This document shows positions 36,722 through 64,000 of a DNA stretch of 64,000 nucleotides, piece by piece. The position numbers and the translations under genes were made by a program. The DNA comes from Campylobacteraceae bacterium. GTDB lineage: Bacteria; Campylobacterota; Campylobacteria; Campylobacterales; Campylobacteraceae. The notes under the pieces are model-generated. The model had not been told where the DNA came from, ran no database searches, and saw nothing but the letters and a program-made list of their open reading frames with translations. The DNA lies in the NCBI GenBank assembly GCA_031263195.1, contig JAISGD010000010.1, forward strand, positions 32,075-96,074. The letters are read 5' to 3'. How positions within the stretch are numbered: position 1 is the stretch's first letter; the number at the start of each line of letters is the position of its first letter.

Positions 36722-38013
36722 TTTGGTCAAAAGAGGAGTCTTTGTCGCGCGATGAAATGTTCGCGCTTCAAAGTAAAAGGCTGCAAGATACCGTATCAAA
36801 AGTTTACGAGAAAGTGCCGTTTTACAAACGTAAATTTGACGAGCTTGGCATAAGCGCGCAAGATATCAAAACTATAGCTGACATAGCGAAGCTGCCTTTT
36901 ACGAAAAAGCAGGATTTGCGTGATAATTATCCGTTCGGACTTTTCGCCGTTGATAATTCCGAGCTTATCAGGATACACAGTTCCAGCGGCACTACAGGCA
37001 AACCAACCGTCGTAGGCTATACAAAGTCCGACATAGACGTTTGGGCTGAAGGAGTTGCAAGAGTGCTTACAATGGGCGGTATCACAAAAAATGATATTGT
37101 ACATGTAGCTTACGGATACGGGCTGTTTACGGGCGGTTTGGGTCTTCACGACGGAGCTACTAAAGTCGGCGCGACCGTTGTGCCAAGTTCGGGGGGATTT
37201 ACCTCAAGACAAGCGATGCTTTTAAAGGATTTTGGCGCAAGCGCGCTTGCTTGCACTCCAACGTTTGCTATGCATATTTTGGAAACCGCGCTTCATGAAG
37301 GATACGAACCGAAAAAAGATTTTAAACTAAAAGCCGGATTTTTTGGCGCGGAACCTACAAGCCGAGGGTTAAAAGATGAATTGGCAAATGGCTTAAATAT
37401 CAGCTATCACGACATCTACGGACTTTCGGAGATAATAGGTCCGGGGGTTGCGGGCAATTGCAAATACAGTAAAGATTTGCATATATTTGAAGATCACTTC
37501 TACCCTGAAATAATTGACCCGAACACTTTGGAAGTGCTGCCGTACGGAGAAAAAGGCGAACTTGTTATCACTTCTTTGACAAAACAAGCTCTTCCGATTA
37601 TCAGATACAGAACGGGCGACGTGACTATACTAAATCCTGAAGTTTGCAAGTGCGGCAGAACGCAGGTGCGCATGAAAAACATTATGGGCAGAGTTGACGA
37701 TATGTTGATTGTAAACGGTGTGAACGTATTTCCGTCTCAAGTTGAACATGTATTGTCAAATATAGATGAGATTACGCTCAATTATCAAATCATCGTTGAT
37801 AAAAAAGGCTATCTTGACAAACTTGACGTTATGGTCGAAGTCACGGAAGATATGCCAATGGACAGTATAGGCGCGCTTGAGAGAGTACAAAAAAAGATAC
37901 AAAACGAGCTTTTGAGCAATCTTTATATTCACGCTAATGTCAAATTGGTTGAGCCAAGGACTATTGAACGTTCGCAAGGAAAAGCTGTGCGCGTTGTTGA
38001 TAAAAGGAGTTAA
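36718..38013 (+). CDS. paaK: Phenylacetate-CoA ligase family adenylate-forming enzyme
   Basis: Motifs SSGTTGKPTVV, YGLSE and RYRTGD. 431 aa. Confidence 0.9.
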   Translation: MIWSKEESLSRDEMFALQSKRLQDTVSKVYEKVPFYKRKFDELGISAQDIKTIADIAKLPFTKKQDLRDNYPFGLFAVDNSELIRIHSSSGTTGKPTVVGYTKSDIDVWAEGVARVLTMGGITKNDIVHVAYGYGLFTGGLGLHDGATKVGATVVPSSGGFTSRQAMLLKDFGASALACTPTFAMHILETALHEGYEPKKDFKLKAGFFGAEPTSRGLKDELANGLNISYHDIYGLSEIIGPGVAGNCKYSKDLHIFEDHFYPEIIDPNTLEVLPYGEKGELVITSLTKQALPIIRYRTGDVTILNPEVCKCGRTQVRMKNIMGRVDDMLIVNGVNVFPSQVEHVLSNIDEITLNYQIIVDKKGYLDKLDVMVEVTEDMPMDSIGALERVQKKIQNELLSNLYIHANVKLVEPRTIERSQGKAVRVVDKRS

Positions 38014-38015
38014 AA

Positions 38016-38444
38016 ATGAAATATTTCGTCAAACAACTTACGGTATTTTTAGAAAATAAACCCGGAGAGCTTGCCTCTTTCACCCATATTTTAAGCGGTA
38101 AAAATGTCAATATCAAATCTTTGATATTGGTGGAATCCACAGAATACGGACTGGTACGCGCTATTGTAGACAATCCGCAAAAAGCAAAAGCCGTACTGGA
38201 GAGTGCGGGACTCAGCGTAAGATTTAGCGACGTTTTGGCTGTCAAAATAAAAGACGAGGTAGGAAGTTTTGACAGGATAGTAACGATTTTGAGTAAAAAT
38301 AGCATTAATATCCTATATACTTATAGTTTTTACTCCACAAACAGCGGTATTTTCATCTTTAGCGTTGATAATTTGCAAAAGGGTATTGACGCGCTTTTGG
38401 AGGCAAAAGAAAATGTTTTGGAAGCAGCGTATTTTTATGAGTAA
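38016..38444 (+). CDS. ACT domain-containing protein
   Basis: 142 aa with two ACT-like beta-alpha-beta-beta-alpha-beta repeats (LTVFLENKPGELA...). This is the usual fourth gene of iorAB-paaK clusters. Confidence 0.8.
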   Translation: MKYFVKQLTVFLENKPGELASFTHILSGKNVNIKSLILVESTEYGLVRAIVDNPQKAKAVLESAGLSVRFSDVLAVKIKDEVGSFDRIVTILSKNSINILYTYSFYSTNSGIFIFSVDNLQKGIDALLEAKENVLEAAYFYE

Positions 38445-38477
38445 GTGACGTAATATGATTAAAAAATTTTAATTTAT

Positions 38478-38828
38478 TTATAAAAAGCGGTGCAATTTAC
38501 ATCGAAAGTCCTTATTTTTAATTAAATCAAGAAATGATTTTATTCGTGCAGGTTCTTTTTTGAAAAATTGTGTTACTTTGACTTTGGAAAGCAAAGAAAA
38601 CAAATCATTTGCATCAACTCTTATTGCATATAGCCCAACAACTAGCCTTAAATAAACATTGTGCCTGAACCGCAAAAAGGGTCTAAAACAGTTGCGCTTT
38701 TATGTGCAAACTGCTTTATCATCGTGTGCGGCAGTTGCGGCGGGAACTTTGCAGGATATGGGTGCAAAGAATGGTGTTAAGTACATTGTGTCGCTGTTAT
38801 AGAAGTCAAAATCTATATTGTAATTCAT
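38478..38828 (-). pseudogene. Frameshifted, 3'-truncated DNA (N6/N4) methyltransferase remnant
   Basis: My own three-frame reading gives three pieces. First, ATG 38828 MNYNIDFDFYNSDTMYLTPFF, ending in a stop. Second, after a +1 shift, LHPYPAKFPPQLPHTMIKQFAHKSATVLDPFCGSGTMFI*. Third, ...GLYAIRVDANDLFSLLSKVKVTQ.... This covers the AdoMet motif I (DPFCGSGT) region only. No catalytic (D/N)PPY part follows. Confidence 0.65.
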
Positions 38829-38855
38829 TGTCTTATTATTTTACTTTGCTCATTA

Positions 38856-41477
38856 TCAGTTATTATATTGTACGTTTTTAAGGTCTTCTTTTAGCCTTTT
38901 AAAATCAGTTATTTGCTGTTCTAATATTTCAGGGCTTGGAATAATACCAAATTCATCAGAAGGCAAATGTCCTTCTATCAAATTCGATATTTCTCCGTGC
39001 TTTTCAACAACTGTTTCAATAAGCGTTTTTTCAAATTTTATTTCTTTTAATCTTCCCATTCTTATTTGAGGGTCGAAACGTTGTACTGTTCCTCCTAAAA
39101 TAGTAAAAATAGCCAAGGCTTCATAAGAAGCCCTTAATGCCGCCAGGCCTGCTTTGGAATAATCAATTCTTTCATTTCCATTGGTAATTTTACTTTTTCT
39201 CAACCATTCTTCTGCTTTTGTAGGGTCGTTATATTGCCCTTCATTTGCAGGGCTTGTATTTGCTACAACTTTTCCACAAATTTGATTATCACGTTCCAAA
39301 GTGTGGTGAATAAAACTATTCTCAATGCCATTCAAATACTTTTTACTAAAATTTTTGAGGTGGTAAAAGAAAATTAAATCATGTGTAAGTATGATTACTT
39401 GTTTTGAAGTTGCTTGTAGTGCCAGCCTTTCCGCAATTTGTTTTTTTCTATCGTTATCCAATGAATTTACAGGGTCATCGAAAATTAGCCCTCTGTTTAT
39501 TTCAGACATTTGGAGTTCAGCAAGAAAATCTGCAATAGCAATCACTTTTTGTTCGCCTTCGCTTAATACTGCATTAGGATTTTGCCCTTTTAATTTGAGT
39601 TGTCTGTAAGATTTTCCTTGTGTACCTGTATGATTGACTTCTATTCCGAAATTTCCGTTGAGTTTTTGACACTCGTTATTGAAAGTATCAATATATTTTT
39701 GGTTAAAATACTTGTTTGATAATGTTTTTTCGGCATTTGTTATTATCCGTTTTGCATAATCAGCATTGTGTGCTTTTTTTATCCAAACTTGATTATTGAC
39801 ATAAGTTTCAAATTTTGGAAAATGCGTATTGAATTTTTCTTTGTGTTCTAAAAATGTTTTTGCATTCAATAATTTTTCTAACTCCTTACTTTGTTCATCT
39901 TCCGTTAGATTTTTGATTAAAGCATCGACAGCCGTTTCAATCGCTGCGTGTTGTTCAACTCCTATTTCTATTGCTATTCTTTCATTTGCTGTTTTGCTTT
40001 GAATATCGGAAATAATATTTTTAGCAAGTGTTTTTTGTTCTGAAAGTTTTCGGTTCAATGCTACCAATTCGTCAGGATATTTTTCAGTTAACCAAACAGT
40101 AAGTGTATTGTCTTGTGGAAACAAGTCAAAATTTAAACTTTCATAACTTTGTTTTGCTTTGTCAAGCGTTTCTTGTGCCTGTTTTGCCTTTTGCTCCATA
40201 ATGCTTTTTATGAAAGTCCAATAGTTGGAAATTAGTTGTTTTGCATTATCCGAAAGTAGTTGTTGGCAAAATAAACAATTGTCGCCATTTTCAGGATAAA
40301 CAGCATTTCCTGTTTTCTGTGTTTTAGCAAATTCCTCGGCGGAAATAATAAAATTTTTCCATTCGATTGCTCCTACTCCTTGTATCTTGTCGGTTTTAAA
40401 ATTTTCAATACTTTCTGCTTTTGCTGTGGTTTCTTTTGAAATACAATCAGTAATTACTGATTGTATTTTTACAATCATTTCGATTGTAAAAAACTGATTA
40501 AGTTTTTCAATATCTTGCTTGTTTTTAGCCAGTAAGGTTTTGATATTTCCAAGTTTTTTTATTTCATTTTCTTTTCCTTTTAACGCCAATAGAAGTTCGT
40601 CATATTGTTTTTGTATCGTCTCTTTTTGGGTTTTATCATCATCAGAAAAAGGTGTGTATTTTTTCAAATCGTCATAAATATTTGTTTCCGCATTCAGATT
40701 TTGAACAATCGCTTTAATTTCCGAATTGCCGTCAAACAAGGCGGATAAATCATTTGCTGTATTTCCTAATTGTTTGGTTTGAATATCGGTATTTAGTTTT
40801 TCTTCAACTCGATTAATAGCACTTGTGTAATTTGCAAAAAAACTCAATCCCGCAGGGCGAAATTCAAATTCGTTTTTTTCAGCAAGTTGTTTAAATAAAC
40901 CTTTTCCATCAAAGACTGCAAATTGTTCAAATTCGGTATTATCTCTATTCGTAATAAATAACACTGTTTCAATATTATTTGATTTAAAAGTAAATTTTGC
41001 ATTAATAGATTTGTGCTCGTTTTCAATATTAATATTCGGCAAAATATCTTCGGGATATTTTGAATAAAAAACATTTTTCAAAAGCCTTACATAACCCGAC
41101 TTTCCCGAGCCATTTGCACCATAAATGATTGTGAGGTTTGGACTAAATTCTATTGTTTGATTTTCGGTTAAGGCGTTTACACCTTCAACATTTTCAAGTT
41201 TTGCAAGAAGTAAATCAGATTTGTATTGTCCTGCATTTATAATATTATAATCAATGGTGATTTCTGACTTTTCAGTTTCTTCTTTAATTTGCAATAATTC
41301 AAGCAAATAAGAATACGAGGTATCAATATAATTTTCAGAAACGGCGTTACCCGATAAAATTTTCTCTGCAAGAAATTTTGCCCAATAAGGCAGTTCGTTA
41401 GCAAATCTCTTTACTTCCGTTTCAAGCGTTTCTGCTTGTATGTGTATGTTTTCGATATTGTTATTTTCTTCATTCAT
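38856..41477 (-). CDS. AAA_13 (PrrC/RloC-like) ATPase with coiled-coil insert; candidate anticodon nuclease / abortive-infection protein
   Basis: 873 aa. Walker A YGANGSGKSG (~41.10-41.13 kb), then ~450 aa of heptad-rich K/E/Q/L sequence with a central CLFC (~40.27 kb). ABC signature LSEGEQKVIAIADFLAEL, Walker B LIFDDPVNSLD and ILTHD follow. The C-terminal ~190 aa contain LRASYE (R-x3-E) and downstream His residues (EKHG, NLIEGH), reminiscent of the PrrC Arg-Glu-His triad. Noticeably more AT-rich than the flanks (by eye). Confidence 0.72.
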   Translation of the reverse strand: MNEENNNIENIHIQAETLETEVKRFANELPYWAKFLAEKILSGNAVSENYIDTSYSYLLELLQIKEETEKSEITIDYNIINAGQYKSDLLLAKLENVEGVNALTENQTIEFSPNLTIIYGANGSGKSGYVRLLKNVFYSKYPEDILPNINIENEHKSINAKFTFKSNNIETVLFITNRDNTEFEQFAVFDGKGLFKQLAEKNEFEFRPAGLSFFANYTSAINRVEEKLNTDIQTKQLGNTANDLSALFDGNSEIKAIVQNLNAETNIYDDLKKYTPFSDDDKTQKETIQKQYDELLLALKGKENEIKKLGNIKTLLAKNKQDIEKLNQFFTIEMIVKIQSVITDCISKETTAKAESIENFKTDKIQGVGAIEWKNFIISAEEFAKTQKTGNAVYPENGDNCLFCQQLLSDNAKQLISNYWTFIKSIMEQKAKQAQETLDKAKQSYESLNFDLFPQDNTLTVWLTEKYPDELVALNRKLSEQKTLAKNIISDIQSKTANERIAIEIGVEQHAAIETAVDALIKNLTEDEQSKELEKLLNAKTFLEHKEKFNTHFPKFETYVNNQVWIKKAHNADYAKRIITNAEKTLSNKYFNQKYIDTFNNECQKLNGNFGIEVNHTGTQGKSYRQLKLKGQNPNAVLSEGEQKVIAIADFLAELQMSEINRGLIFDDPVNSLDNDRKKQIAERLALQATSKQVIILTHDLIFFYHLKNFSKKYLNGIENSFIHHTLERDNQICGKVVANTSPANEGQYNDPTKAEEWLRKSKITNGNERIDYSKAGLAALRASYEALAIFTILGGTVQRFDPQIRMGRLKEIKFEKTLIETVVEKHGEISNLIEGHLPSDEFGIIPSPEILEQQITDFKRLKEDLKNVQYNN

Positions 41478-41870
41478 ATCATTTTACCCCCTCCATTTTA
41501 CTTTACGAAATATTACCACAAAAGAGCAATTTTGGTTGGTGTAAAAAACACTAATCGCCCTAAATAATTAATCGGTCTATTTTTATAAAAAATAAGATAA
41601 TCGTAAACCAAATTTTATTGTAAATAACTATATCGTTAAAATAAAGAGTAAAAAATATATAAACTGGGGTGCAAAACTATTTACTTCATTGCATTTATTT
41701 TTTAATTTATAGCCATCCATATTGTGTATACTATAAAGTCGTGTATAATTTTGCAAAAATTGTGAATTACTTACAAGTAATATTAAAAAATATAGAAATA
41801 ATCTATTATATCCAATAAATAAAATAAGTGATAAGCATTATAAGTCTAGTAAAATTTTTACAAAAAGTCT

Positions 41871-41900
41871 GAAAGGCAGTAAAATTATTTACTACCTTTC
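41871..41900 (-). terminator. Probable terminator hairpin downstream of ridA
   Basis: GAAAGGCAGTAAA-atta-TTTACTACCTTTC forms a 13-bp stem with 1 mismatch, 75 nt past the ridA stop. On the minus strand it is followed by AGACTTTTTG. Confidence 0.45.
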
Positions 41901-41974
41901 GATTAAACAGTATTATTTTTCAGGAATCCCCACAAAGTGTAGCTTTGAATTAAAACCATTTTATTTAAGCGACA

Positions 41975-42361
41975 TCATTTTTTTGTCTTGCGAACCGCAG
42001 TTACCTCGATCTCCACAAACCACGCGGGATTTGCGAGTGCGGCGACTTGAACAACAGATCTTGTTGGTAGATTTGGCTGCTCTTTCGTGCCAAAAAATTT
42101 ACGATACCCATTCATAAACCCGTCAAAATCCATCTTTCCCGAAAGCTTTGGATCGCCCACTAAAAAGACTTGCATTTTAATAACATCGCCCATTTCCAAA
42201 CCAAGACTTTTTAAGGTTTTATCAATGCTTGCAAGCGAACTGATAGTCTGCTCTTCCGTATTGCCATACGCTTCAACCGATCCTTTTGTAGCATTTATAA
42301 TTGTCGGTACAACGCCGCTTAAATTAACAACAGTCGCGTCGGATGGAATCTCTACCGCCAT
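41975..42361 (-). CDS. RidA/YjgF family reactive-intermediate deaminase
   Basis: 128 aa with the family-typical core (QTISSLASIDKTLKSLGLEMGDVIKMQVFL...PTRSVVQVAAL...VEIEVTAV). Confidence 0.85.
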   Translation of the reverse strand: MAVEIPSDATVVNLSGVVPTIINATKGSVEAYGNTEEQTISSLASIDKTLKSLGLEMGDVIKMQVFLVGDPKLSGKMDFDGFMNGYRKFFGTKEQPNLPTRSVVQVAALANPAWFVEIEVTAVRKTKK

Positions 42362-42394
42362 CGCTATTGGAAAATCAGAACCCGGCGTCTTATG

Positions 42395-43756
42395 TTACAT
42401 CCAATCAATGACTTTAGCCACTTCGCTTACAGCGTAGCATTTTATGCCGCTTATCTCCTCAAGCGGTCGCGACGGGACTATGGCTTTTTTAAAGTGCTGT
42501 GTTTTGGCTTCTTTTAAGCGGTTGTCAAGTTGATAAACGTCTCTTATGTCGCCGATTAGGCTAACTTCTCCAATAAAGATAGTATCTTTGCTTAGAGGTC
42601 GGTTTCTGAAACTGCTTATAATAGCCGCTACTATCGCCACATCCGCGGCTGTTTCGGTTATCTTTATTCCTCCGGCGATATTTATAAAAACGTCATATCT
42701 GTTTAACGGCAAGTCAAGCTTGCGCTCCAAAAGCGCTAAAAGCATAGTCAAACGATTTAGTTCATAACCTGTTGAAGCGCGTTTGGGATTTGGATATGTG
42801 CTTTCGCTAAGTAACGCTTGCACTTCCAAAACTATCGGACGAGAACCCTCCATTACAACCGTTATCGCCGAACCGGCTTGCGAATCATTTCTTGTGAAAA
42901 ATTTCTTTGAGATATCCTTAGCGCTTTCAAGTCCCGTTTTTGTCATCTCAAAAATTCCGACTTCGCTGGTTGAACCGAAACGATTTTTAAAACCTCTTAA
43001 TATTCTAAGCTCTCTATTTGAGTCGCCTTCAAAATACAGTACCGTATCTACCATATGCTCAAGTATCCTGGGTCCTGCTATAGAGCCCTCTTTTGTGATA
43101 TGCCCGATAATAAAAACCGCTACGTTTTTATCTTTGGCGTAGCGCATAAGTTCAAACGTTATCTCTCTTACTTGCGATACGCTTCCTGGAGCTGATGATA
43201 TTTTTTCGCTAAATAGTGTTTGAATAGAGTCTACTATCAAAACATCAAATTTTTTCAAAGAGAGTTCATGCAAAATCGTATCAAGATTTATTTCGCACAA
43301 AAGATATAGGTTTTTATGCAAACTATCCAATCTTTGCGCGCGCAATTTTATTTGACCTGCGGACTCTTCGCCGCTTACATAGAGCGTATTTTTACCGGAT
43401 TTTGCGAGATTGCCACCGATTTTTAAAAGCAGCGTTGATTTGCCAACGCCAGGACTTCCTCCGATAAGCGTGAGACTGCCCTCTACTATGCCGCCGCCCA
43501 AAACCAGATCAAGCTCTTCATTATTTGAGCTAAATCTCTCAACGCTCTCGTCCTCTATCTCAGTTATGGATTTCGCGCTGTTTTGTGAAGATTTTGAATT
43601 TGGCGATTTTGACGTCTCTTTTAAAGTTGTAATTTGTTCTTGCGTTAATTCCAAGAACTCGCCCCACGCACCGCAATTTGGGCATTTGCCAAGCTCTGCC
43701 GCGCTTTGAAAACCGCACGCTTGACACTCGTAAAGCTGCTGTTTTTTCTTGCCCAT
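42395..43756 (-). CDS. radA: DNA repair protein RadA
   Basis: N-terminal zinc ribbon (YECQACGF...CPNCGAW), Walker A GGSPGVGKST, KNRFG motif and a Lon-like C-domain. Confidence 0.95.
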   Translation of the reverse strand: MGKKKQQLYECQACGFQSAAELGKCPNCGAWGEFLELTQEQITTLKETSKSPNSKSSQNSAKSITEIEDESVERFSSNNEELDLVLGGGIVEGSLTLIGGSPGVGKSTLLLKIGGNLAKSGKNTLYVSGEESAGQIKLRAQRLDSLHKNLYLLCEINLDTILHELSLKKFDVLIVDSIQTLFSEKISSAPGSVSQVREITFELMRYAKDKNVAVFIIGHITKEGSIAGPRILEHMVDTVLYFEGDSNRELRILRGFKNRFGSTSEVGIFEMTKTGLESAKDISKKFFTRNDSQAGSAITVVMEGSRPIVLEVQALLSESTYPNPKRASTGYELNRLTMLLALLERKLDLPLNRYDVFINIAGGIKITETAADVAIVAAIISSFRNRPLSKDTIFIGEVSLIGDIRDVYQLDNRLKEAKTQHFKKAIVPSRPLEEISGIKCYAVSEVAKVIDWM

Positions 43757-43758
43757 AA

Positions 43759-44637
43759 CTACTCTTTCGCGTTAAAAATAGCATCCAAAATGCTATCGAC
43801 ATAACTTTCCGCATCAAAAGGTATAAGGTCGTCCATGCTTTCTCCAACGCCAACATAAAGTATCGGAAGTTGTAAAGTTTTGGCTATACTAAAAAGCGCG
43901 CCGCCTTTAGCCGTACCATCAAGTTTTGTTATGATAAGCGCGTCTATGCCTATCATTTCATTAAACGCCAACGCTTGATTTATCGCGGAATTTCCTTGAG
44001 TTCCATCAAGTATTAATATCTTTCTATGAGGAGCGTTATCAGCCGCCTTTGCGCAGATTTTCACTATTTTTTTAAGCTCATTAGCTAAATTTATTTGATT
44101 ATGCAAACGCCCCGCTGTATCTATAATGACATTATCAATACCTCTTGCTTTTGCGGAAGAGATCGTATCGTACGCTACTGCGGAAGGATCATGTCCTTGT
44201 TGCGTATAAATTATCGGAACGTCTATTTTTTCACTCCAGCGTTTTAACTGTTCTATAGCCGCCGCTCTAAAAGTATCTCCGGCTCCGAGCAAAACGCTTT
44301 TGTTTTGGTTTTTATATATATTCGCAAGTTTTGCGATGGTAGTTGTTTTGCCCGCGCCATTTACCCCTACTATTAACTCCACAAAAGGATTTGCCGAGAT
44401 ATTCGCGTTTTTATCGTATATGAAATATGATTTTAAAACTCTTTTTATATCGTCTTTACCAACGCTATTTTGAGGTGGGAGGTAGTAGAGTATCTCTTCT
44501 ACCAATTCATAGCTCACGTCCGCTTCCAAAAGCACTTCTTCTAAAATCTCTTTGCTAACTTTTTCTTGTTTTGCTGGGACTATCTCTTTTATCGCTTCAA
44601 GAGTTTTGCCAAGTCCTTTTTTGATAGACGCGAACAC
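43759..44637 (-). CDS. ftsY: Signal recognition particle receptor
   Basis: NG domain with [15 protein letters not shown] and [10 protein letters not shown] motifs. Confidence 0.95.
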
Positions 44638-45149
44638 TAAAAAATCCTCTTCAAGTCAGCCTCTATCATCTCCTCGGGTATTGCTCCTGTATAATCGGTA
44701 ACATACGCGCCATCTTTATCATATATCACTATATACGGCACACTTGTTATATTGCCCAAAGTAGCCGAAAGTCTGAGGTTATTTTTATCAGTTGAGACAG
44801 AAAAATCCACACCATTTTTGGATATAAAATCTTGTGCATCTTCCAAAGAGCTGTTATCAAGAACAGCAGATATGATATTGAGGTCGTTTTGATATCTGCT
44901 TTGAAGATTATTCAGGTTTGGGATTTGCGCATCACACGGTATGCACGAAGTCGTAAAAAAGGCTAAAAGCAGCGATTTGTTATCATATGAAAATCCATCC
45001 TCTGTTTTTTTTAGAATAATGGTTTTATTATTTGTCGTTTTCAAGACGATATTTTGATTGCTTACGAGCGGTTTATCAATATTGTCACCGCAACCAAAAA
45101 AGAGAGCTAAACTAAAAAGAGGCAGTAAAAAAGAGATAGGTTTTATCAC
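44637..45149 (-). CDS. Thioredoxin-fold (TlpA/ResA-like) lipoprotein
   Basis: Lipobox LFFGC and a CIPC redox motif. 170 aa. Confidence 0.75.
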
Positions 45150-45201
45150 GAAGCTGTCCTTATTATTGTAAAATACTTCTTAAAAAAAGGATTATAAACA
45201 A

Positions 45202-47335: not shown

Positions 47336-47372
47336 TTTTAAAAAGCTAAATATACAAAATTAAGGTGAAAAA

Positions 47373-47945: not shown

Positions 47946-47960
47946 TCGCGGCGCAAACTT

Positions 47961-49413: not shown

Positions 49414-49427
49414 ACCTTGCTTTTTTA

Positions 49428-54338: not shown

Positions 54339-54500
54339 CTATTTTTCAAGAATTTTTTTTCATATTAAAATGAGTATTTTTGTTACATATAAAGTCAATG
54401 GTATCGATATAGAATTTTATATAAAATACATAAATGGTGATTTTGTACATATAATTTTGTAGAAAATTAATTTTTATCACTTATCATGCAAAGTTGATAT

Positions 54501-55394: not shown

Positions 55395-55467
55395 CGCTGT
55401 CCTTTTTTAAGTTCGCTTTTAAAGAAGAAATAATAGCATAAACGACTAATATTTATAAAGGTTAAAA

Positions 55468-56751
55468 ATGGATACGATAGAGATATTTAAAAGTTTTTCT
55501 TCCACGCCAAGATGCAGTTTTGATGCTCTGAAAATGAGAGATTTTATCGTCAAATCTGTTTTACCTCTCGGCTATGAAGTAAATATAGATAAAGCCAACA
55601 ATATAATATGCCGCAAAAAAAAGCCGTTACTATGCTTACAATCGCATTATGATATGGTATGTTTAGCCGATGCACCGAATGTTGAGATATATGAGAAAGA
55701 TGGTTTTTTGATGGCAAAAAACTCAACTCTTGGCGCGGATAACGGTATAGGCGTGGCATTGATGCTTTATATGATGAGTAAATTTGATAATATAGAGTGT
55801 CTTTTTACATCTGACGAAGAGGTTGGGCTTATTGGAGCTAATAACTTTGAGTATAAAATAACTGCACCATATCTTCTAAATCTTGACAGTGAAGAGGAAG
55901 GAGCAATATTCGTAGGGTGTGCAGGCGGCGTTGATATCATAGGTGAAATTGACGCGCTAAAAAAACCGTATAGAAATCGCTATAAGACATATGATATATG
56001 CATTAAGGATTTGCAGGGCGGACACTCAGGAATAGATATAGATAAAAATATTCCAAACGCTATTAAAGTTTTAGCGGAGGAATTGATAAAGAGTAAATGC
56101 GAATTGATATCCATAGACGGCGGTGAGAGGATAAACTCTATCCCAAAATCCGCATTCGCCAAAGTTTACGCGCCAAACGGCTTTACTTCAAAAAATATAG
56201 ATTTGAGCATTAAAGAGATAGAAAATGACGGCAATGTTTTGACGCATTCGGATAATATTATACAAATGCTGCAAAACTTTGTCCAAGGTGTGCGCTCATT
56301 TGATGAAAAACTCAAAATACCGAGTCAAAGTATCAATCTATCAACTGTTAAAACAGATGCAGATAAAGTAAAAGTAGAATTTTTCGCACGTGCAATGGAT
56401 AAAAAATCTTTAGAGAGTTTGAGCGATGAGACAGAAAAATTTTTGAAAAGTTTTGGTTTTAGGGTTAAAACAGAAGGATTTTCAGCTCCTTGGAAGCCGA
56501 ATATCACGCCATTTGCAAAAAAACTTCAAGCAGTAATGGGAAGATTTTTTGAAAACGTAAATTTTAAAGCGATTCATGCCGGACTTGAGTGCGGTATTTT
56601 TGAAAACAAACAAAAATCTTTGCAAGTTGTATCTATAGGTGCGAATATCAATTTCCCTCACTCTTTGCGTGAAAACTGTGAAATAGCTTCTGTCAAAAAG
56701 CTCGAAACAATAGTGACAGAGTTGATGTTAGACTTAAAGCACACTTTATAG
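55468..56751 (+). CDS. pepD: M20C family Xaa-His dipeptidase
   Basis: LQSHYDMV, TLGADNGIGVA, TSDEEVGLIGA and DSEEEGAIFVGCAGG are collinear with E. coli PepD motifs. Confidence 0.85.
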   Translation: MDTIEIFKSFSSTPRCSFDALKMRDFIVKSVLPLGYEVNIDKANNIICRKKKPLLCLQSHYDMVCLADAPNVEIYEKDGFLMAKNSTLGADNGIGVALMLYMMSKFDNIECLFTSDEEVGLIGANNFEYKITAPYLLNLDSEEEGAIFVGCAGGVDIIGEIDALKKPYRNRYKTYDICIKDLQGGHSGIDIDKNIPNAIKVLAEELIKSKCELISIDGGERINSIPKSAFAKVYAPNGFTSKNIDLSIKEIENDGNVLTHSDNIIQMLQNFVQGVRSFDEKLKIPSQSINLSTVKTDADKVKVEFFARAMDKKSLESLSDETEKFLKSFGFRVKTEGFSAPWKPNITPFAKKLQAVMGRFFENVNFKAIHAGLECGIFENKQKSLQVVSIGANINFPHSLRENCEIASVKKLETIVTELMLDLKHTL

Positions 56752-56903
56752 ATTTTGGATTTATCAAATATATAAAACAAAACAGTGCTGTTAAAATATG
56801 ATAAAATTTTTTATTTTTATAATAGGATTTTCCTCTGCTTTGTTTATATCCAGAAGTTGCAGTAAGCGATAAAAATAAAAGCCGTTATTTGTAAAAACTT
56901 GAG

Positions 56904-57548
56904 TTATTTTACCTTAAATCCATTTTTACTTTTGCAAAATTCGGTCAAAAAACATTCGTTGCATTTAGGATTTTTAGCTTTACAGATATACCTTCCGAAA
57001 AGCACCATCCCTTGGTGAAGTATATGCAGATCGTCTTTAAAAGCCGCCACCAAATCAAGCTCTGTTTTTTCCGGAGTTTTTGCTGCAGATAAGCCAAGCC
57101 TGTGAGATGTGCGGAATACATGTGTATCTACCGCCATAAAATTGGCGTTTTCGTACTCAATCATCACAACATGCGCTGTCTTTTGGCCGACACCGGCTAA
57201 ACTCATAAGCTTTGTCTCATCAAGCGGTATTTCGCCTTGAAAATTATCACTCACACTCTTAGCCATCGCGATTAGATTTTTGGCTTTATTGTTAAAAAAA
57301 GAGCAGCTTTGTATGAGAAGTTTCAGTGATTCCAAGTTTGCATTTGCCAGAGCATTTATATCTGGATAATTCTCAAAAAGAGCTGGCGTAATGATATTTA
57401 CCCTCTTATCGGTGCACTGTGCCGAGAGCATAACACATACAAGAAGCTCATAAATGTTTTTGTACGAAAGCTCTGTTTTAGCATTTTGATAATGCTCTAT
57501 AAAAATGGACTTTATTTGCGCTATCTCTTTTTTTGTTGATAATTTCAC
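56904..57548 (-). CDS. nth: Endonuclease III
   Basis: HhH-GPD (LAGVGQKTAHVV), catalytic VDTHVFR, and a C-terminal 4Fe-4S cluster CxxxxxxCxxC...C. Confidence 0.95.
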   Translation of the reverse strand: MKLSTKKEIAQIKSIFIEHYQNAKTELSYKNIYELLVCVMLSAQCTDKRVNIITPALFENYPDINALANANLESLKLLIQSCSFFNNKAKNLIAMAKSVSDNFQGEIPLDETKLMSLAGVGQKTAHVVMIEYENANFMAVDTHVFRTSHRLGLSAAKTPEKTELDLVAAFKDDLHILHQGMVLFGRYICKAKNPKCNECFLTEFCKSKNGFKVK

Positions 57549-57714
57549 TGTTTTTTATTCCTGATATATTTTAGGCTTAAGATATGAAATTTTATCATAA
57601 ATACCAAGAAAAGCATCCGATTAACATAAGTCATTAACTTATATTAATATAAAAATCAGTATAATTCAATCTTTTACCGCACTTGGCGGAAAAATTCTTT
57701 TAAAGGAAAAATAG

Positions 57715-58539
57715 ATGAAAAAATTTATCATAGGTGCGCTAGCGCTTATTGTCGCGGCTAATATCAATGCCGCCGTTATTGCTACTGTTAATGGTCAGGA
57801 GATAACAGATGAGGATGCGAATCTTGTAATTCGTCAATTAACGGGAGGTGCTGGCGGCAGCTACGACAACCTCAATGACGAACTTAAAAAACAGATAGTC
57901 GACCAATTGGTTGAAAAGAAACTTTTGACAAGTTACGCTATCAAAAACGGCATTGAAAAAGACTCTAAATATATAAAAACGCTTTCGCAAGTAAAAAATG
58001 ATATAGCTTTGCAAGTTTGGCTAGACAAAGAGTTCGATAAATTAAAAATAACCGATGAGCAAGTCAAACAGTATTATGATGAAAATACAGACAAATTCCC
58101 ACTAAAACCGGAAGCATGGAAAGTAAGTCATATTTTAGTAAAAGATGAGGCTACGGCAAAAAAAGTTATTAAAGAACTTAACGGCGCTAAAGATTTGCCC
58201 GCTAAATTTATTGAAGCTGTGCAAAAATATTCTGAAGACAATGCTTCCAAAGCAACTAGCGGTGCTTTAGGTACAATAACAAAACAAACACCGTTTGTAA
58301 AAGAGTTTTTGGATGCAACATTTACGATGAAAAAGGGAGACTTGTCAAAAACTCCTGTAAAAACGATACATGGCTATCATATCATATATGTTACGGATAA
58401 AAGTGCGGAGAGCAAATATACATTTGAAGAAATTAAAGATGAACTTACCAATAATGTTGTAAAAAGAGCCGAGTTCCAGAAAAACCTCCAATCTCAAGTA
58501 CAAAAATTGAAAGACAAAGCTAAAATAGAGATTAAATAA
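57715..58539 (+). CDS. peb4: Periplasmic SurA-like parvulin PPIase/chaperone (PEB4-like)
   Basis: Signal peptide and a parvulin domain (VSHILV...GYHIIYV). Its position directly upstream of fba matches C. jejuni cj0596-cj0597. Confidence 0.85.
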   Translation: MKKFIIGALALIVAANINAAVIATVNGQEITDEDANLVIRQLTGGAGGSYDNLNDELKKQIVDQLVEKKLLTSYAIKNGIEKDSKYIKTLSQVKNDIALQVWLDKEFDKLKITDEQVKQYYDENTDKFPLKPEAWKVSHILVKDEATAKKVIKELNGAKDLPAKFIEAVQKYSEDNASKATSGALGTITKQTPFVKEFLDATFTMKKGDLSKTPVKTIHGYHIIYVTDKSAESKYTFEEIKDELTNNVVKRAEFQKNLQSQVQKLKDKAKIEIK

Positions 58540-58558
58540 CCTCAAAAGGGCTTTTTAG

Positions 58559-59629
58559 ATGAAAGTATTTGATATTATGGAAAGCGGTGTAATAAACAAA
58601 GATAGTGTGGGCAGACTTTTTGAGTTGGCAAAAACAGAAAAGTTTGCCATACCCGCTGTCAATGTCGTAGGTAGTGATTCCATCAATGCTGCTTTAGAGG
58701 CGGCAAAAGCTGTAAATTCACCGATAATTGTTCAATTTTCAAATGGCGGCGGCGAATTTATGGCAGGTAAGGGTTTGGACATTTCCAATACTGCCGCGCT
58801 TGGCGCGATATCCGGCGCGCAGCATATTCATCTGGTGGCTGAATCGTATGGTGTGCCGGTTATTATTCACACAGACCACGCTGCTAGAAAACTCCTTCCG
58901 TGGATTGACTCTTTGCTTGATGCCGGCGAGGAGTTTTATAAAACTCACAAAAAACCGCTTTTTAGTTCTCACATGTTAGATTTATCCGAAGAGCCTTTAG
59001 AACAAAATATAGCTACTTGCGCCAAATACTTGGAGCGAATGAGTAAAATAGGTATGACGCTTGAAATAGAGATAGGCGTAACAGGTGGCGAAGAGGATGG
59101 CGTGGACAATACAAGCATTGATAACGCGCTACTTTATACGCAGCCAAAAGACGTGGCTTACGCGTATGAAGAGTTAAAAAAGGTAAGCGATAACTTTACG
59201 ATAGCGGCGTCATTCGGTAATGTTCATGGTGTTTATAAACCCGGAAACGTCGTATTAACTCCAAAGATTTTGGGCAACTCCCAAACATATATAAGAGAAA
59301 AATTTAATCTTAACGCGCAAAAACCGGTAAATTTTGTTTTTCACGGCGGTTCGGGTTCAACTTTGACAGAAATAAGAGAAGCCATAAGTTATGGTGTTGT
59401 AAAGATGAATATAGACACCGATACGCAGTGGGCTTTTTGGGATGGCGTCAGAGAATACGTCAATAAAAATAGCGCGTATTTGCAAGGTCAGCTTGGAAAT
59501 CCCGAAGGCGAAGATAAACCGAATAAAAAATATTATGACCCCAGAAGATGGTTGAGAGAGGGTCAAAAAAGTATGGTAGAACGTTTAAAAACAGCTTTTT
59601 GCGATTTAAATTGCCTAGATAGAAACTAA
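58559..59629 (+). CDS. fba: Class II fructose-bisphosphate aldolase
   Basis: Collinear with E. coli FbaA (FAIPAVNVVGSDSINAALEAA...IVQFSNGG, HTDHA, FHGGSGS). Confidence 0.95.
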   Translation: MKVFDIMESGVINKDSVGRLFELAKTEKFAIPAVNVVGSDSINAALEAAKAVNSPIIVQFSNGGGEFMAGKGLDISNTAALGAISGAQHIHLVAESYGVPVIIHTDHAARKLLPWIDSLLDAGEEFYKTHKKPLFSSHMLDLSEEPLEQNIATCAKYLERMSKIGMTLEIEIGVTGGEEDGVDNTSIDNALLYTQPKDVAYAYEELKKVSDNFTIAASFGNVHGVYKPGNVVLTPKILGNSQTYIREKFNLNAQKPVNFVFHGGSGSTLTEIREAISYGVVKMNIDTDTQWAFWDGVREYVNKNSAYLQGQLGNPEGEDKPNKKYYDPRRWLREGQKSMVERLKTAFCDLNCLDRN

Positions 59630-59635
59630 AATACT

Positions 59636-59666
59636 CTGTCCGTGTTTAAGACACGGGCAGATTTTA
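59636..59666 (+). terminator. Rho-independent terminator of fba
   Basis: CTGTCCGTGT-ttaag-ACACGGGCAG forms a 10-bp stem including one G:U, followed by ATTTTA. It lies 7 nt after the fba stop. Confidence 0.65.
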
Positions 59667-59710
59667 AACTCCAAGACGATATAATAAGCCACTTGTACTA
59701 AAGGTTTTTG

Positions 59711-61009
59711 ATGAAGATAATATATACAAAAGATAAGAATTTCAAAGTTGAGTTTGATGCGCTTTTATCGCGCGGTGAGATAGATTTAAAAGAAGCCGGA
59801 ATAATTGTAAACAGTTTACTTAACGAGATAAAAAATGAAAAAAACAGCGCTCTTAAAAGACATATTTTAAAATTTGACAAATGGGAAGTTAAAAGCGATA
59901 ATGAGCTGGAAATTTCGCCTTCTTTGATGGAAAAAACTTATAATGAACTTGGTCGCGATTTGAAAGACGCGCTCCATAAAGCATATAATAGAATTTTCGC
60001 ATTCCACGAAAAACAACTTCCAAAATCATGGCTTACATATGAAGATAACGGAATAGTTTTAGGACAAAAGATAAGTTCAGTGGACAAAGCCGGACTTTAT
60101 ATTCCAGGAGGTAAAGCCGCGTATCCAAGTTCGCTTTTGATGAACGCTATTCCTGCTATTGTCGCCGGCGTAAAAGAGATAGTTGTTTGCACGCCCGCGC
60201 CGAACAACGAATTAAATTCGCTTCTTTTAGCCGCTATGCATCTTTGCAATATCAAAAAAGCTTTCAAAGTCGGAGGCGCTAGCGCGATAGGAGCTATGGC
60301 TTACGGTACAGAAAGTATACCGAAGGTTGATGTGATAACGGGTCCTGGAAATATATTTGTAGCGACTGCTAAAAAGATGGTTTTTGGGGATGTAAATATA
60401 GATATGATAGCAGGTCCCAGCGAAATAGGCATATTAGCGGATAAAAGTGCGAATGCGAAATATTTGGCTATAGATTTGTTGTCTCAAGCCGAGCACGATG
60501 AGATGGCAAGTTCCATTTTGATAACAACGGATGAGGAGATCGCAAAAGATACGTTAAAAGAGCTTGAAGCTTACTTACCAAAACTTTCGCGCCAAAAAAT
60601 CGCAACTGTTTCAGCGCAAACAAGAGGCGCTATAATTGTTGCCGAAGATTTGGATGAAGCGGTCTTTTTGATGAACAAAATAGCGCCTGAACATTTGGAA
60701 GTCGTAACCGAAAATCCGTTTGATTTATTGCCAAAAATTAAGCATGCAGGTGCTATTTTTATGGGTTCTTTTACGCCTGAACCGATAGGCGATTATATAG
60801 CGGGACCAAACCATACGCTTCCGACAGGCGGAACAGCAAGATTTTTTTCACCTTTAAACGTTGAGCATTTTATGAAAAAGTCGTCAATTATCAGTATGAG
60901 CAAAGATGGAATGAAGGCGATAGGCGAAAGTTGCGCGAATATCGCAAACGCAGAAGGGTTAAGCGCACACGAAGAGTCCATAAGGATTAGACTTAAAGAT
61001 TTGAAATAG
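59711..61009 (+). CDS. hisD: Histidinol dehydrogenase
   Basis: GGKAAYPSSLLM, QAEHDE and PEHLE motifs. ATG at 59711; the track begins one TTG codon earlier. Confidence 0.95.
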   Translation: MKIIYTKDKNFKVEFDALLSRGEIDLKEAGIIVNSLLNEIKNEKNSALKRHILKFDKWEVKSDNELEISPSLMEKTYNELGRDLKDALHKAYNRIFAFHEKQLPKSWLTYEDNGIVLGQKISSVDKAGLYIPGGKAAYPSSLLMNAIPAIVAGVKEIVVCTPAPNNELNSLLLAAMHLCNIKKAFKVGGASAIGAMAYGTESIPKVDVITGPGNIFVATAKKMVFGDVNIDMIAGPSEIGILADKSANAKYLAIDLLSQAEHDEMASSILITTDEEIAKDTLKELEAYLPKLSRQKIATVSAQTRGAIIVAEDLDEAVFLMNKIAPEHLEVVTENPFDLLPKIKHAGAIFMGSFTPEPIGDYIAGPNHTLPTGGTARFFSPLNVEHFMKKSSIISMSKDGMKAIGESCANIANAEGLSAHEESIRIRLKDLK

Positions 61010-61016
61010 GAAAAAT

Positions 61017-61682
61017 ATGCGCAAAAACAGAGCACAAGGCGAAACGGGAAACTGGAGCGGTTTTAGCAAAGAAGAAGAGTTGTTTAACAGCTTAACTCAC
61101 ATAGTGGGCTTTCTATTCTCCGTAGCGGCACTTGTCGTTTTGGTGGTTTTGGCGTCTTTGGAGGGGAATGTCTGGAAAATAGTAAGTTTTAGCATTTACG
61201 GCTCAACGCTTATTATTTTATATGGCATCTCGACTCTATACCACAGCATAAAAGGCAGAAGTAAAAAAATCTTTCAAAAATTAGACCATATAAGCATATA
61301 TTTGCTGATAGCAGGCTCTTACACGCCTTTTACGCTTGTTAGTATGCGAGGCGGCTGGGGCTGGAGTATATTTGGCGTTATATGGGGACTGGCTATTTTT
61401 GGCATTGTTCAAGAATTTTTTGTAAAATCCCAAAAGCGCATTTTATCTTTAGTGATATATATTGTTATGGGTTGGCTGATTTTGATAGCCGTAGTTCCGC
61501 TCGTGAAAAGCTTGCCTGTAGGCGGACTTGTTTGGCTTGTTGTGGGTGGACTTTTTTATACGGGCGGAGTGTATTTTTTTATAAATGACGAGAGAATACG
61601 ACATTTTCACGGCATATGGCATATATTTGTTATGGCAGGATCCATAAGTCACTTTTTTACGATGGCGTTTTATGTACTGTGA
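61017..61682 (+). CDS. Hemolysin III / PAQR family channel protein
   Basis: 7 TM helices, with DHISIYLLIAGSYTPF and a terminal HxxxH-like HGIWHIFV. Confidence 0.9.
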   Translation: MRKNRAQGETGNWSGFSKEEELFNSLTHIVGFLFSVAALVVLVVLASLEGNVWKIVSFSIYGSTLIILYGISTLYHSIKGRSKKIFQKLDHISIYLLIAGSYTPFTLVSMRGGWGWSIFGVIWGLAIFGIVQEFFVKSQKRILSLVIYIVMGWLILIAVVPLVKSLPVGGLVWLVVGGLFYTGGVYFFINDERIRHFHGIWHIFVMAGSISHFFTMAFYVL

Positions 61683-61983
61683 TAGAGAAGCATATACGTT
61701 TGTTGGACTGCTTCGCCGCTAACACTTTTAGCAGTGATAAAGAAAAATATCATTGTAAAGAATATATTTCCGACTTACTATTAAGTATCATCTTACATTG
61801 TAAAAAGATTTTTAGTTTAAATATTGCACTATCATCTATTGCAGCAAAGAATTATGAGGTATTTCATTTTTGAAATAGTTTGCAATTTTAACAAGCGACT
61901 TTAAAATAACAGCTCAACTATATTTTAACTCTTTATTGGTACAATTTGGGATTTATAAAATACAAAATAGAGATTTGACACGA

Positions 61984-63390
61984 ATGGTACATATTGACAA
62001 AGTCTATATAAACGGCGAATTTGTAAAACCTCACGGCATAAAAACTTTGACACTCATAAATCCAAATACTTTAGATGCTATAGGCGAAGTTACCCTGTGT
62101 GACAAAAAAGATGCCGCTTACGCCATAAAGTGTGCAAAAGAAGCTTTCAAAACTTTTTCAAAAACTTCCATACAAGAGCGCGGTGAGATTCTGCAAAGAC
62201 TCTATAATGCTATGAGTAAAAGAGAGGATGAATTGAATGCAGCCGCTTTGATGGAATACGGCTCACCTATAAGCGCTACAAAAGGCAGGACTCGTTTTGC
62301 TAAAAACTCATTTTTAATAGCGCGTGAACAAATGAATAGATTTGAATTTAAACGCATTCTGGAAGACAACTCAAAAATTTTGAAAGTTCCTTTAGGTGTT
62401 GTAGCAGCCATCGCTCCTTGGAATGCAAATTATACGCATATATGTCAAAAACTCGCTCCCGCTATTGCAGCAGGTTGTACGGTCGTATTTAAGCCGAGCG
62501 AATACAGCGCAATAGAGACACAAATCCTTTGCGAATGTTTTGATGATGCGCGTCTCCCCAAAGGGGTTATCAATATCGTTAATGGTATTGGCGAAGAGGT
62601 TGGAAGCTATATCGTAAAACATAAAGATATCGCACTTATAAATTTTACAGGCTCAACAAAAGTCGGCAGACAAATAAGCAAAAATGCCGCCAAAATGATA
62701 AAGAGAACTATCTTAGAGCTTGGCGGAAAATCGTCGAATATTATACTGGACGATGCCGATTTGACGACTGCCATACCAAACGCCCTAAAAATTGCTTTTA
62801 GCAACAGCGGTCAGGCATGTCATGCCGGAAGCAGATTATATGTACCCGAGAACAAATTTGGATTAATATGTGAAATGCTGATCAAGACCATCAAAGAGAT
62901 AAAAATAGGTGATATTCACGATGAAAAGTGCTATATTGGGCCGCTCATAAACCAAACGCAATTTGATAGAGTGCAGTCATATATCGCTTCCGGTATAAAA
63001 GATGGGGCAAAAGTTCTTGCAGGCGGACTTGGTAAATTGGATGGTTTGAAGGGATACTATGCCAAACCGACGATTTTTACAAATGTGAAAGCAGATATGA
63101 AAATAGCGCGCGAAGAGATATTTGGTCCGGTGCTTTGCGTATTTACATATAAAAGCGAACAAGAAGCTATAAAAATGGCTAATGATACTATTTACGGGCT
63201 TGCTGGATATGTAAGCGGAATGGATTTGGAACATGCAAGAAGAGTTGCGGAGCAGATTTTCGCGGGTTGGGTTTATATCAATAAAGGTGTATATGAAGGT
63301 AAAGGCGTTATACCTCACATAGGCGCTAAGCAGTCCGGCATAGGTACAAACGGCATTGATGATTATTTGCAATTCAGATTTATATCTTAA
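61984..63390 (+). CDS. NAD(P)-dependent aldehyde dehydrogenase
   Basis: ELGGKSSNII (catalytic Glu) and FSNSGQACHAGSRL (catalytic Cys). Preferred start is MVHIDKVYINGEFV at 61984; the track starts at TTG 61936. Confidence 0.9.
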   Translation: MVHIDKVYINGEFVKPHGIKTLTLINPNTLDAIGEVTLCDKKDAAYAIKCAKEAFKTFSKTSIQERGEILQRLYNAMSKREDELNAAALMEYGSPISATKGRTRFAKNSFLIAREQMNRFEFKRILEDNSKILKVPLGVVAAIAPWNANYTHICQKLAPAIAAGCTVVFKPSEYSAIETQILCECFDDARLPKGVINIVNGIGEEVGSYIVKHKDIALINFTGSTKVGRQISKNAAKMIKRTILELGGKSSNIILDDADLTTAIPNALKIAFSNSGQACHAGSRLYVPENKFGLICEMLIKTIKEIKIGDIHDEKCYIGPLINQTQFDRVQSYIASGIKDGAKVLAGGLGKLDGLKGYYAKPTIFTNVKADMKIAREEIFGPVLCVFTYKSEQEAIKMANDTIYGLAGYVSGMDLEHARRVAEQIFAGWVYINKGVYEGKGVIPHIGAKQSGIGTNGIDDYLQFRFIS

Positions 63391-63403
63391 TTAAGGGGTT
63401 TTG

Positions 63404-64000
63404 ATGGCAGATAAAGTCTACGTTATAGACACAAATATTATTTTACAAAATATACAGCATGTTAAAAATCTTTGCGAAGAAGGTAAAAATACCGTTGTAA
63501 TTCCCGAAACCGTTCTCATTGAACTCGAAGAAAAAAAGAAGCAAACCGGCGAACTTGGATTTCAAGCACGTGAATTTGCGAGATTTTTGGCCGAATCAAA
63601 AGTCAAAGAAGTTGATATATCTGGCAATTATAGAGTCGTAAAATTATATAATGAAAATTACAATATTCACTTGATGAGTAAAACAGAATATGATTCCGAT
63701 ATAGAAGCGCGTCATATAGCTGAAAGTAATGATAAGCGCATTATCGAGATAGCCGATGCCGCGCGAAACTACTATAAAGGGCAGAAAGTTATCTTTGTTT
63801 CTTTGGATATATACGCAAGAATGTTTGGGCTTTTTAAAAATCTCAAAATAGAATCCTTGCGTGAAGATCGCTCCGAAGTGCCGCGTGCGCAATTTTTAAA
63901 GAGTATAGAGTTGGACTCTTCATTTTTTAACACTCTTGAAAATACAAATATTAAAAAAATAGACCCTAATTATAAAATAGAAAACTTTTGTTATGAGTTC
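63404..64000 (+). CDS. PIN-domain/PhoH-like ATPase (YlaK-type), partial at the right edge
   Basis: My own translation from ATG 63404 gives MADKVYVIDTNIILQNIQHV...VVIPETVLIELEEKK...DKRIIEIADAA, a PIN-like N-domain. The frame is open to the window end, 199 codons. Confidence 0.75.
   Translation, partial: MADKVYVIDTNIILQNIQHVKNLCEEGKNTVVIPETVLIELEEKKKQTGELGFQAREFARFLAESKVKEVDISGNYRVVKLYNENYNIHLMSKTEYDSDIEARHIAESNDKRIIEIADAARNYYKGQKVIFVSLDIYARMFGLFKNLKIESLREDRSEVPRAQFLKSIELDSSFFNTLENTNIKKIDPNYKIENFCYEF

Follow-up and report, generated by a model that had tools for sequence, protein, structure and literature searches.

Why does an eight-base palindrome crowd into one side of a stretch of bacterial chromosome and then disappear? 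The stretch is a window of 64,000 bp (G000:C10:32075-96074; positions without a contig label are those of the window) from the genome of a Campylobacteraceae bacterium, here called G000, and the word is TACATGTA, which occurs 25 times in the window, all within 1395-37107, where shuffled sequence yields 0.72. The assembly comprises 1.79 Mb in 32 contigs at 37% GC, with a completeness of 99.68% and a contamination of 0.27%, and is affiliated with the Campylobacteraceae/Sulfurospirillaceae group, in which its relatives are uncultured gut and environmental genomes; the nearest relatives of one window protein are likewise found in uncultured Campylobacteraceae and Sulfurospirillaceae genomes. The new analysis, which rests on sequence comparison, indicates that G000 is very probably a recombination mosaic and that the window lies across the margin of a group of introgressed, word-rich tracts.

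A first-pass annotation of this DNA had described its right end as a motif desert. The counts behind that description are exact: a scripted recount returns 25 copies of TACATGTA, all on the left and none right of 37107. The shorter ACATGT is present 35 times in the window, 33 of them at or left of 37751, and the remaining two, at 57118 and 58971, stand within the near-sites TACATGTG (57117-57124) and CACATGTT (58970-58977), whose flanks were reproduced. The reasoning built on these counts fares less well. Specifically, the word occurs 246 times across G000, as compared to 25 times for the reversed control word, and is strongly clumped (variance/mean of 2.93 in 10-kb bins; dispersion chi2 = 471, df 161, p = 4e-32), which violates the uniform placement presumed in the probability of 0.58^25 that had been put forward for all copies falling on one side. 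The annotation had itself named common motif-free stretches of at least 25 kb as grounds for giving up the desert as an anomaly, and such stretches are indeed common: there are 16 gaps of at least 26 kb, and 13.7% of all 26.2-kb windows of the genome lack the word, for which reason the right-hand desert is not special. The motif-free right end is G000's ordinary state, and the anomaly sits in the left side, where 25 copies in 37.75 kb are the highest count in the genome. No more than 0.25% of windows attain it, and at the genome-wide mean its Poisson P is 3e-10.

Two ancestries in one genome

The relatives provide the framework for understanding this excess. Among 40 of them, counts of TACATGTA range from 5-12 in G001 and G009, which is no excess, to 729 in G012 and 894 in G004, all within the same genus, and three other genera of the family hold 1037-1528 copies; G002 and G003 are among the word-poor congeners. 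G004 (25 contigs, 1,523,948 bp, 74% complete) carries its 894 sites at 5.9 per 10 kb and evenly, with a variance/mean of 1.29 and 2 of 142 10-kb bins empty. The even spacing of about one copy per 1-2 kb that is typical of uptake sequences is therefore seen in G004 and not in the clumped G000.

Whole-genome blastn of G000 against G004 aligned 986 kb, over which identity has two peaks, one at 68-76% and one at 86-92%, separated by a trough at 80-84%. The classes used here were set by identity alone and not by the motif; a first split of G000 into hot and cold DNA was motif-defined and circular, and all conclusions are drawn from the identity-defined classes, which are as follows.

Identity of at least 85%: 274 kb aligned, 110 sites in G004, 100 in G000, 83 shared
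Identity of 80-85%: 84 kb aligned, 29 sites in G004, 19 in G000, 12 shared
Identity of 75-80%: 207 kb aligned, 65 sites in G004, 15 in G000, 13 shared
Identity below 75%: 420 kb aligned, 158 sites in G004, 11 in G000, 5 shared

Two ancestries are thus present, and the sites of G000 are confined to the high-identity class: while site density is flat across the classes in G004 (3.1-4.0 per 10 kb), it differs 14-fold in G000. Gene conservation as the cause of high identity fails to explain this pattern, since the motif density of G004 is the same in all classes and that of G000 is not, and since the trees described below relocate G000 instead of just shortening its branches. In blocks below 80% identity there are 8 sites found in G000 only, against about 8.5 expected by chance, and the backbone therefore gives no sign of making the word; G000's own lineage probably does not make it.

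The sharing extends to individual sites. In the G004-type tracts, 8-mers of G004 are identical in G000 at 43.9% of positions, and words of the same composition at 44.2%, whereas 83 of the 107 G004 sites of TACATGTA are kept in G000 (77.6%, p = 2e-12); conversely, 83 of 97 G000 sites are present in G004 (85.6%). Sites found in only one of the two number 24 in G004 and 14 in G000, which by estimate is no significant difference (about p = 0.14). In native blocks, G004 sites are matched in G000 less often than average words (3.5% versus 10.3%), as expected because these sites are novelties of the G004 lineage.

The same division is visible beyond the motif and beyond this window. Identity to G012 is likewise raised in G004-type tracts, and the G004-type blocks, once merged, make up about 55 tracts, 0.7-22 kb in length, on many contigs, with hot patches scattered over at least 10 of the 32 contigs. 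Motif-rich 20-kb pieces of C3, C12, C28 and C31 are closest to G004, at 86-92%, and then to G012, with G002 at 73-84%; two further motif-rich pieces without a counterpart in the incomplete G004 are closest to G012, narrowly, at 83-86%. Motif-poor pieces of C25, C1 and C27, in turn, are collinear with G002 at 83-87%, with G004 at 69-77%; the comparison with G002 covers sampled pieces. Even after masking of the word, G004-type and native blocks are separated by a tetranucleotide distance of 0.100, as compared to 0.029 +/- 0.004 upon random relabelling, at the same GC. The first-pass annotation had suggested a k-mer comparison of the two halves; a contrast exists between blocks of the two types, but it does not significantly set the two halves of the window apart.

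Trees of the individual segments conflict in the same way. The groups to be tested were chosen once initial trees of overlapping regions had been seen. For 5.2-11.7, 14.6-18, 32.8-35.9 and 42.4-44 kb, maximum-likelihood trees place G000 inside the group of G011, G012 and G004 with 100/100 support, and in three of these four left-hand trees, including those of 14.6-18 kb and 32.8-35.9 kb (the latter at 100/100), G000 is sister to G004. Approximately unbiased (AU) tests reject the exclusion of G000 from the G004 clade with p = 6e-07 (14.6-18 kb), 0.001 (32.8-35.9 kb) and 0.008, and the corresponding test for 5.2-11.7 kb does not reach significance. For 44.7-47.3 kb, by contrast, the tree is (G000,(G002,G003)), again with 100/100 support; here, a pairing of G000 with G004 is rejected at p = 6.6e-56 and membership of the G004 clade at 1.6e-51. 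G004 groups with G012 and G011 in every tree, which rules out G004 as the mosaic genome and identifies G000 as the one with segments of different origin. Incongruence between left and right, which the first-pass annotation had suggested as a check, is thereby confirmed.

The change from one ancestry to the other is sharp. Informative sites were defined as those at which G004 and G012 agree and differ from G002, and are given as ratios of G004-type to G002-type. Counted per 200 bp, they run from 20:5 through 13:13 to 10:40, so that the switch takes place within about 100-150 bp, at 44.65-44.8 kb; together with another at 46.2 kb in the RNase Y gene, this places sharp breakpoints inside collinear core genes. 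From left to right, G000 is of G004 type from 42397 to about 44650, of G002 type up to 46.2 kb, of G004 type for 0.4 kb in the RNase Y gene and mixed from about 46.6 kb. The ancestry boundary lies about 7.6 kb right of the last motif copy, and the G004-type radA and ftsY genes that stand between the two contain no TACATGTA in G004 either. Among the explanations offered in the first-pass annotation, import from a lineage with a different system, leaving a mosaic junction, is supported by the bimodal identity, the shared sites, the tree conflict and the breakpoint. The junction it had proposed exists, but at about 44.7 kb and not at 37.75 kb or at the defence islet.

Layout of the window

The segments of the window can be listed as follows, with the strand where one applies.

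1395-37107: hot patch with 25 exact copies of TACATGTA; 12 of the 18 sites alignable to G004 are TACATGTA there too
1-4521: G004-type DNA, 88% identical at 13-1417 and 83% at 1490-4521; sites at 1395, 1508 and 1576
5220-18000: G004-type tracts, 88-89% to G004, 79-82% to G002 and 72-77% to G001; 10 sites
24552-32626, minus strand: putative iron-uptake gene cluster, mostly not of G004 type (70-78% to G004, except about 30-31 kb at 89%)
32804-38446, plus strand: G004-type tract with iorA, iorB, a paaK-like ligase gene and an ACT-domain gene, 91%; 6 sites, 4 of them common to G004
38447-42396, minus strand: low-GC islet (28-34% GC) without the motif
41977-42393, minus strand: 417-bp repeat, consisting of RidA and a further 32 bp; second copy at G000:C23:1257-1673
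42397-44650, minus strand: radA and ftsY, of G004 type, 92%; informative sites 194:31; motif absent both here and from the G004 orthologue
44650-44800: recombination breakpoint from G004 type to G002 type, at the boundary of ftsY and a thioredoxin-like gene
44797-46196: G002-type (native) tract; informative sites 60:226
46197-46596, plus strand: brief return to G004 type within the RNase Y gene (informative sites 30:8), a case of sub-kilobase mosaicism
47000-64000: mostly native DNA without the motif, G002 being closest where compared (81-83%; G004 67-77%); contains the near-sites at 57117-57124 and 58970-58977

A 1-kb profile of identity to G004 conveys the same alternation, with 89% at 0-3 kb, 90-91% at 5-11 kb, 88-92% at 13-18 kb, 88% at 23.6-24.5 kb, 89-94% at 32.8-38.4 kb, 92% at 42.4-44 kb and 67-77% right of 45 kb. 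A kilobase of lower identity interrupts 5220-18000 at around 11-12 kb, and a short G004-type patch, at 85-90%, may be present at about 59-61.7 kb. Window kilobases of at least 85% identity to G004 contain 15 sites in 26 kb and those below 85% contain 5 in 26 kb. Through most of the putative iron-uptake cluster, G006, G008 and G003 score highest (74-84%), and the cluster carries a single site, at 24634. A mosaic with one donor-type side is therefore only partly accurate as a description of this window: the left is mostly donor type, but is itself a patchwork, in which 24.5-32.6 kb is mostly non-G004 DNA with one site. The left part of the window is collinear with one contig (G001:C19) of G001, a distant genome free of the word, and stays so where the gene order of G004 has changed, which argues for allelic replacement and not insertion.

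The islet, at which the first-pass annotation had placed the switch, has flanks that are both 92% identical to G004, and it is therefore not the ancestry junction. It encodes an 873-aa AAA_13 ATPase (38856-41477, minus strand) with a full-length match to PDC-S06, a candidate defence family of PADLOC (E = 2.6e-113), whose gene has no DNA match in 13 congeners, as well as a RidA-family gene (41975-42361). In G004, the same slot between the ACT-domain and RidA genes is occupied by an OLD-like AAA_15 ATPase-TOPRIM gene (L114:16549-18462, plus strand); with different defence-like genes in the two genomes, this appears to be a variable defence-gene slot. The two copies of the 417-bp RidA repeat are 96.6% identical, with a longest exact run of 116 bp. 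The C23 copy has its right flank as in G004, while the window copy lies directly beside radA, an arrangement that none of the congeners shows. The RidA-radA junction may be a G000-specific rearrangement or possibly a misjoin; a reciprocal swap at the repeat was examined, and the left end of C23 matches neither flank. A misjoin at the repeat leaves the breakpoint at 44.7 kb unaffected.

Polarity and rival readings

These findings are best explained by a probable history in which the backbone of G000, closest to the word-poor G002 and G003, carries TACATGTA only at chance frequency, and in which homologous recombination replaced no less than 274 kb, spread over about 55 tracts that measure 0.7-22 kb. 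Because there is one identity peak, at 86-92%, the donor is probably an unsampled species within the G004/G012 subclade, with a divergence of about 11% from G004. In this subclade the word recurs once per 1.7 kb, genome-wide. The imported tracts probably brought their own sites, so that motif density in G000 reads out ancestry. Within the window, the left 38 kb is mostly of donor type, with donor DNA continuing through the defence islet, radA and ftsY and ending at about 44.7 kb, and mainly backbone thereafter. By analogy with Campylobacter, the route of import was presumably natural transformation. Put in terms of the opening question, the desert is simply the genomic background, introgression accounts for the hot patch, and the two meet at a recombination breakpoint.

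Several observations speak against this history or limit it. The tetranucleotide difference between the two halves of the window, taken alone, is matched by 11% of random windows split alike. Some sites, at 18-22 kb, fall in kilobases whose identity to G004 is no more than 76-82%, and 51 sites lie in DNA without a G004 counterpart next to native blocks, G004 being 74% complete. The donor is unsampled, and the best identity is 86-92%. The repeat and the unique RidA-radA adjacency mean that the linkage of 1-42 kb to 42.4-64 kb could be a misjoin. Lastly, the polarity, with the G002-type majority as the probable vertical backbone, follows from a majority rule.

That rule is what separates introgression into G000 from its mirror image, in which G000 descends from the word-rich G004/G012 subclade and about 70% of it was overwritten by G002-like, word-free DNA, so that the desert is the import and the hot patch the remnant. 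The bimodality and the tree incongruence fit this account too, and the good retention of sites in the G004-type class (78-86% versus 44% for control words) is also in its favor. It is nonetheless unlikely, because the G002-type class is the majority (627 kb below 80% identity versus 274 kb of at least 85%), the G004-type DNA is scattered in its many short tracts, like imports into a backbone, and the cold pieces show collinear runs of 13-19 kb with G002.

A second alternative, akin to the assembly chimera that the first-pass annotation had listed, locates the mosaic in the data and not in the organism: co-occurring G004-like and G002-like populations might have been stitched into chimeric contigs during assembly or binning. 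The relatives found are metagenome-assembled genomes, and the 417-bp, 96.6%-identical repeat at 41977-42393 and the RidA-radA junction, which no congener shares, also count in its favor. Such a composite is quite improbable, however. The completeness and contamination values imply that each region is present once, and the two ancestries, about 25% apart, would presumably be too different for an assembler to cross. At least two ancestry switches fall within 2 kb in intact genes (44.7 and 46.2 kb), with mixed ancestry from about 46.6 kb; the tracts, about 55 of them, are spread over many contigs; and at the repeat itself the longest exact run is 116 bp, with both flanks of G004 type.

The first-pass annotation had also considered a chromosomal domain boundary for a site-specific DNA-binding protein. 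The word would then be bound, like matS, parS or Noc sites, by a protein that acts in organising only part of the chromosome. Sharp regional differences in density within G000 are what this proposal has to offer. It can be rejected as very improbable, given that the word is spread evenly over G004, that G004 density is normal in the orthologues of G000 deserts (158 sites in 420 kb), that congener counts span 5 to 894 and that hot patches are scattered over at least 10 of 32 contigs.

Restriction avoidance stripping ACATGT from the right-hand DNA, the annotation's reading of the 6-mer, has next to no chance of being correct: the 8-9 copies it expected there are a single-base figure (8.9), against which the 2 observed do look few, but a dinucleotide model expects 4.5 and a maximal-order Markov model 2.3 (P(<=2 | 3.9) = 0.25), and across the motif-poor 1.42 Mb of G000 ACATGT ranks 48th of 64 six-base palindromes, with 264 observed versus 259 expected (ratio 1.02), while the palindromes truly avoided are others, such as CCTAGG and GGGCCC. 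In the same 1.42 Mb, palindromes that are near-absent, given as observed/expected, are CCTAGG 1/114, GGGCCC 1/73, AGGCCT 11/198, ACTAGT 21/222, TCTAGA 34/317, GCTAGC 37/281, CGATCG 36/219 and TTCGAA 135/755, and they are candidates for real restriction avoidance or CTAG avoidance.

Introgression of word-rich tracts into a word-poor backbone leaves room for a further suggestion as to what the word does. It might be a self-promoting uptake or recombination signal, in which case donor-clade DNA (about 15-30%) in a genome that does not make the word would represent a drive crossing a species boundary. There is some small chance of this; motif-biased import was considered and set aside, as imported tracts show no enrichment of the word in G004 relative to the rest of that genome (4.01 versus 3.54 per 10 kb), in a test that has little power at such density. 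If the drive reading were true, the hybrid would show the word to be dispensable over most of the chromosome, which excludes an essential architectural role.

The word and comparable systems

The sites themselves appear to be written in place. At orthologous coding columns, word-poor kin show stepwise near-misses, for example CGCGTGCA, CGCATGCA, TGCATGCA, TGCATGTA and finally TACATGTA, which indicates that sites are made by substitutions. A second route is visible in the spacer at 45.18 kb (45178-45190, between the thioredoxin-like and 5-FTHF cyclo-ligase genes), where G004, G012 and G011 carry a word-bearing insertion, duplicated in G004, that is found in none of G000, G002, G003, G006, G008, G005 and G001; the word therefore also enters spacers by small insertions or duplications. 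The flank logo extends weakly, as yyT-TACATGTA-Arr only, which rules out membership of a longer repeat and characterizes the word as a stand-alone palindrome. Creation of the word by Vsr is likewise not supported: in a search of 41 genomes, Pfam Vsr was not found in the word-rich G004, G012, G022, G023 and G024 and was found only in G000, G002, G005, G007, G008 and G031, none of which is word-rich, and the transition neighbour TATATGTA is not depleted.

A few further observations on the word and its surroundings can be added. The Vsr-type very-short-patch repair endonuclease of G000 is encoded at C10:9578-9790 (minus strand; 121 bits), left of the window. Some copies of TACATGTA, namely those at C3:503, C3:2576 and C9:32089, and again those at C3:797 and C3:2870, have recurring, near-identical flanks and thus belong to a repeated element instead of being independent sites. 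About 11 of the 25 window copies lie in spacers or at gene boundaries; at 23358-23365, the central CAT forms the ATG start of a 1150-aa minus-strand gene, and at 33638-33647, TTACATGTAA provides the TAA stop of the gene at 33638-34258. Lastly, G011, of the same genus, falls in the G004/G012 clade in every tree, yet is word-poor, with 93 copies; it lacks the word at most positions common to G004, G012 and G000 and has it at 37100. The expansion of the word would accordingly be younger than the clade, or the word was lost in G011.

These results place constraints on TACATGTA. Specifically, the word is no domain marker, it travels with DNA of one ancestry, and its sites are kept about twice as well as comparable words. 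G000 is viable with the word saturating in about one quarter of its alignable DNA and at chance level elsewhere, which indicates that the word is not needed chromosome-wide. Introgression might also explain why many congeners have copy numbers in between (60-250). The word can thus serve as an alignment-free marker of introgression in this group, and hybrids of the G000 type constitute natural experiments on the decay versus persistence of imported sites.

Among known systems, the closest in form is HIP1 (GCGATCGC), the highly iterated palindrome of cyanobacteria. For HIP1-like palindromes, a link to a methyltransferase and Vsr-type repair is a proposed mechanism. Like HIP1, TACATGTA is an 8-base palindrome that arises through point substitutions in genes and spacers unrelated to one another and is kept far better than comparable words (78-86% versus 44%); unlike HIP1, it is a different word in a different phylum, and canonical Vsr is not associated with it. 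The top-ranked literature matches to the string TACATGTA contained no relevant account of it, and no account of a mosaic of HIP-rich and HIP-free DNA in one genome was found, although no search was aimed at one.

A second comparison is with the DNA uptake sequence (DUS) of the Neisseriaceae, whose dialects are known (PMC3630211) and whose dialect distributions are used to spot foreign DNA (PMC7371117). In both cases a short word is hyper-abundant and specific to a lineage, and its local density deviates from the background at DNA of foreign origin (PMC7371117). The arrangement is reversed, however: in the Neisseriaceae, the resident genome is word-rich and it is the foreign elements that are atypical, whereas in G000 the resident genome is word-free and the imported core DNA is word-rich. 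Furthermore, the foreign DNA of G000 constitutes allelic replacement of core genes and not integrated elements, and a role of TACATGTA in uptake is hypothetical.

The introgression between Campylobacter coli and C. jejuni offers the closest parallel in process. There, up to 23% of the core genome is given as replaced in some lineages (PMC3749442), and mosaic alleles have been described (PMC3139442). As in that system, a member of the order Campylobacterales has had homologous DNA replaced in many tracts by core DNA of a species about 15% or more diverged; in G000, donor-type DNA accounts for 28% of what can be aligned to G004. The differences are that the partners of G000 are uncultured congeners about 25% apart, with the donor unsampled, that G000 is a single recipient genome and thus comes without population-level timing, and that, unlike in C. 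coli and C. jejuni, the donor DNA carries a hyper-abundant word, which makes the imported tracts visible without any alignment.

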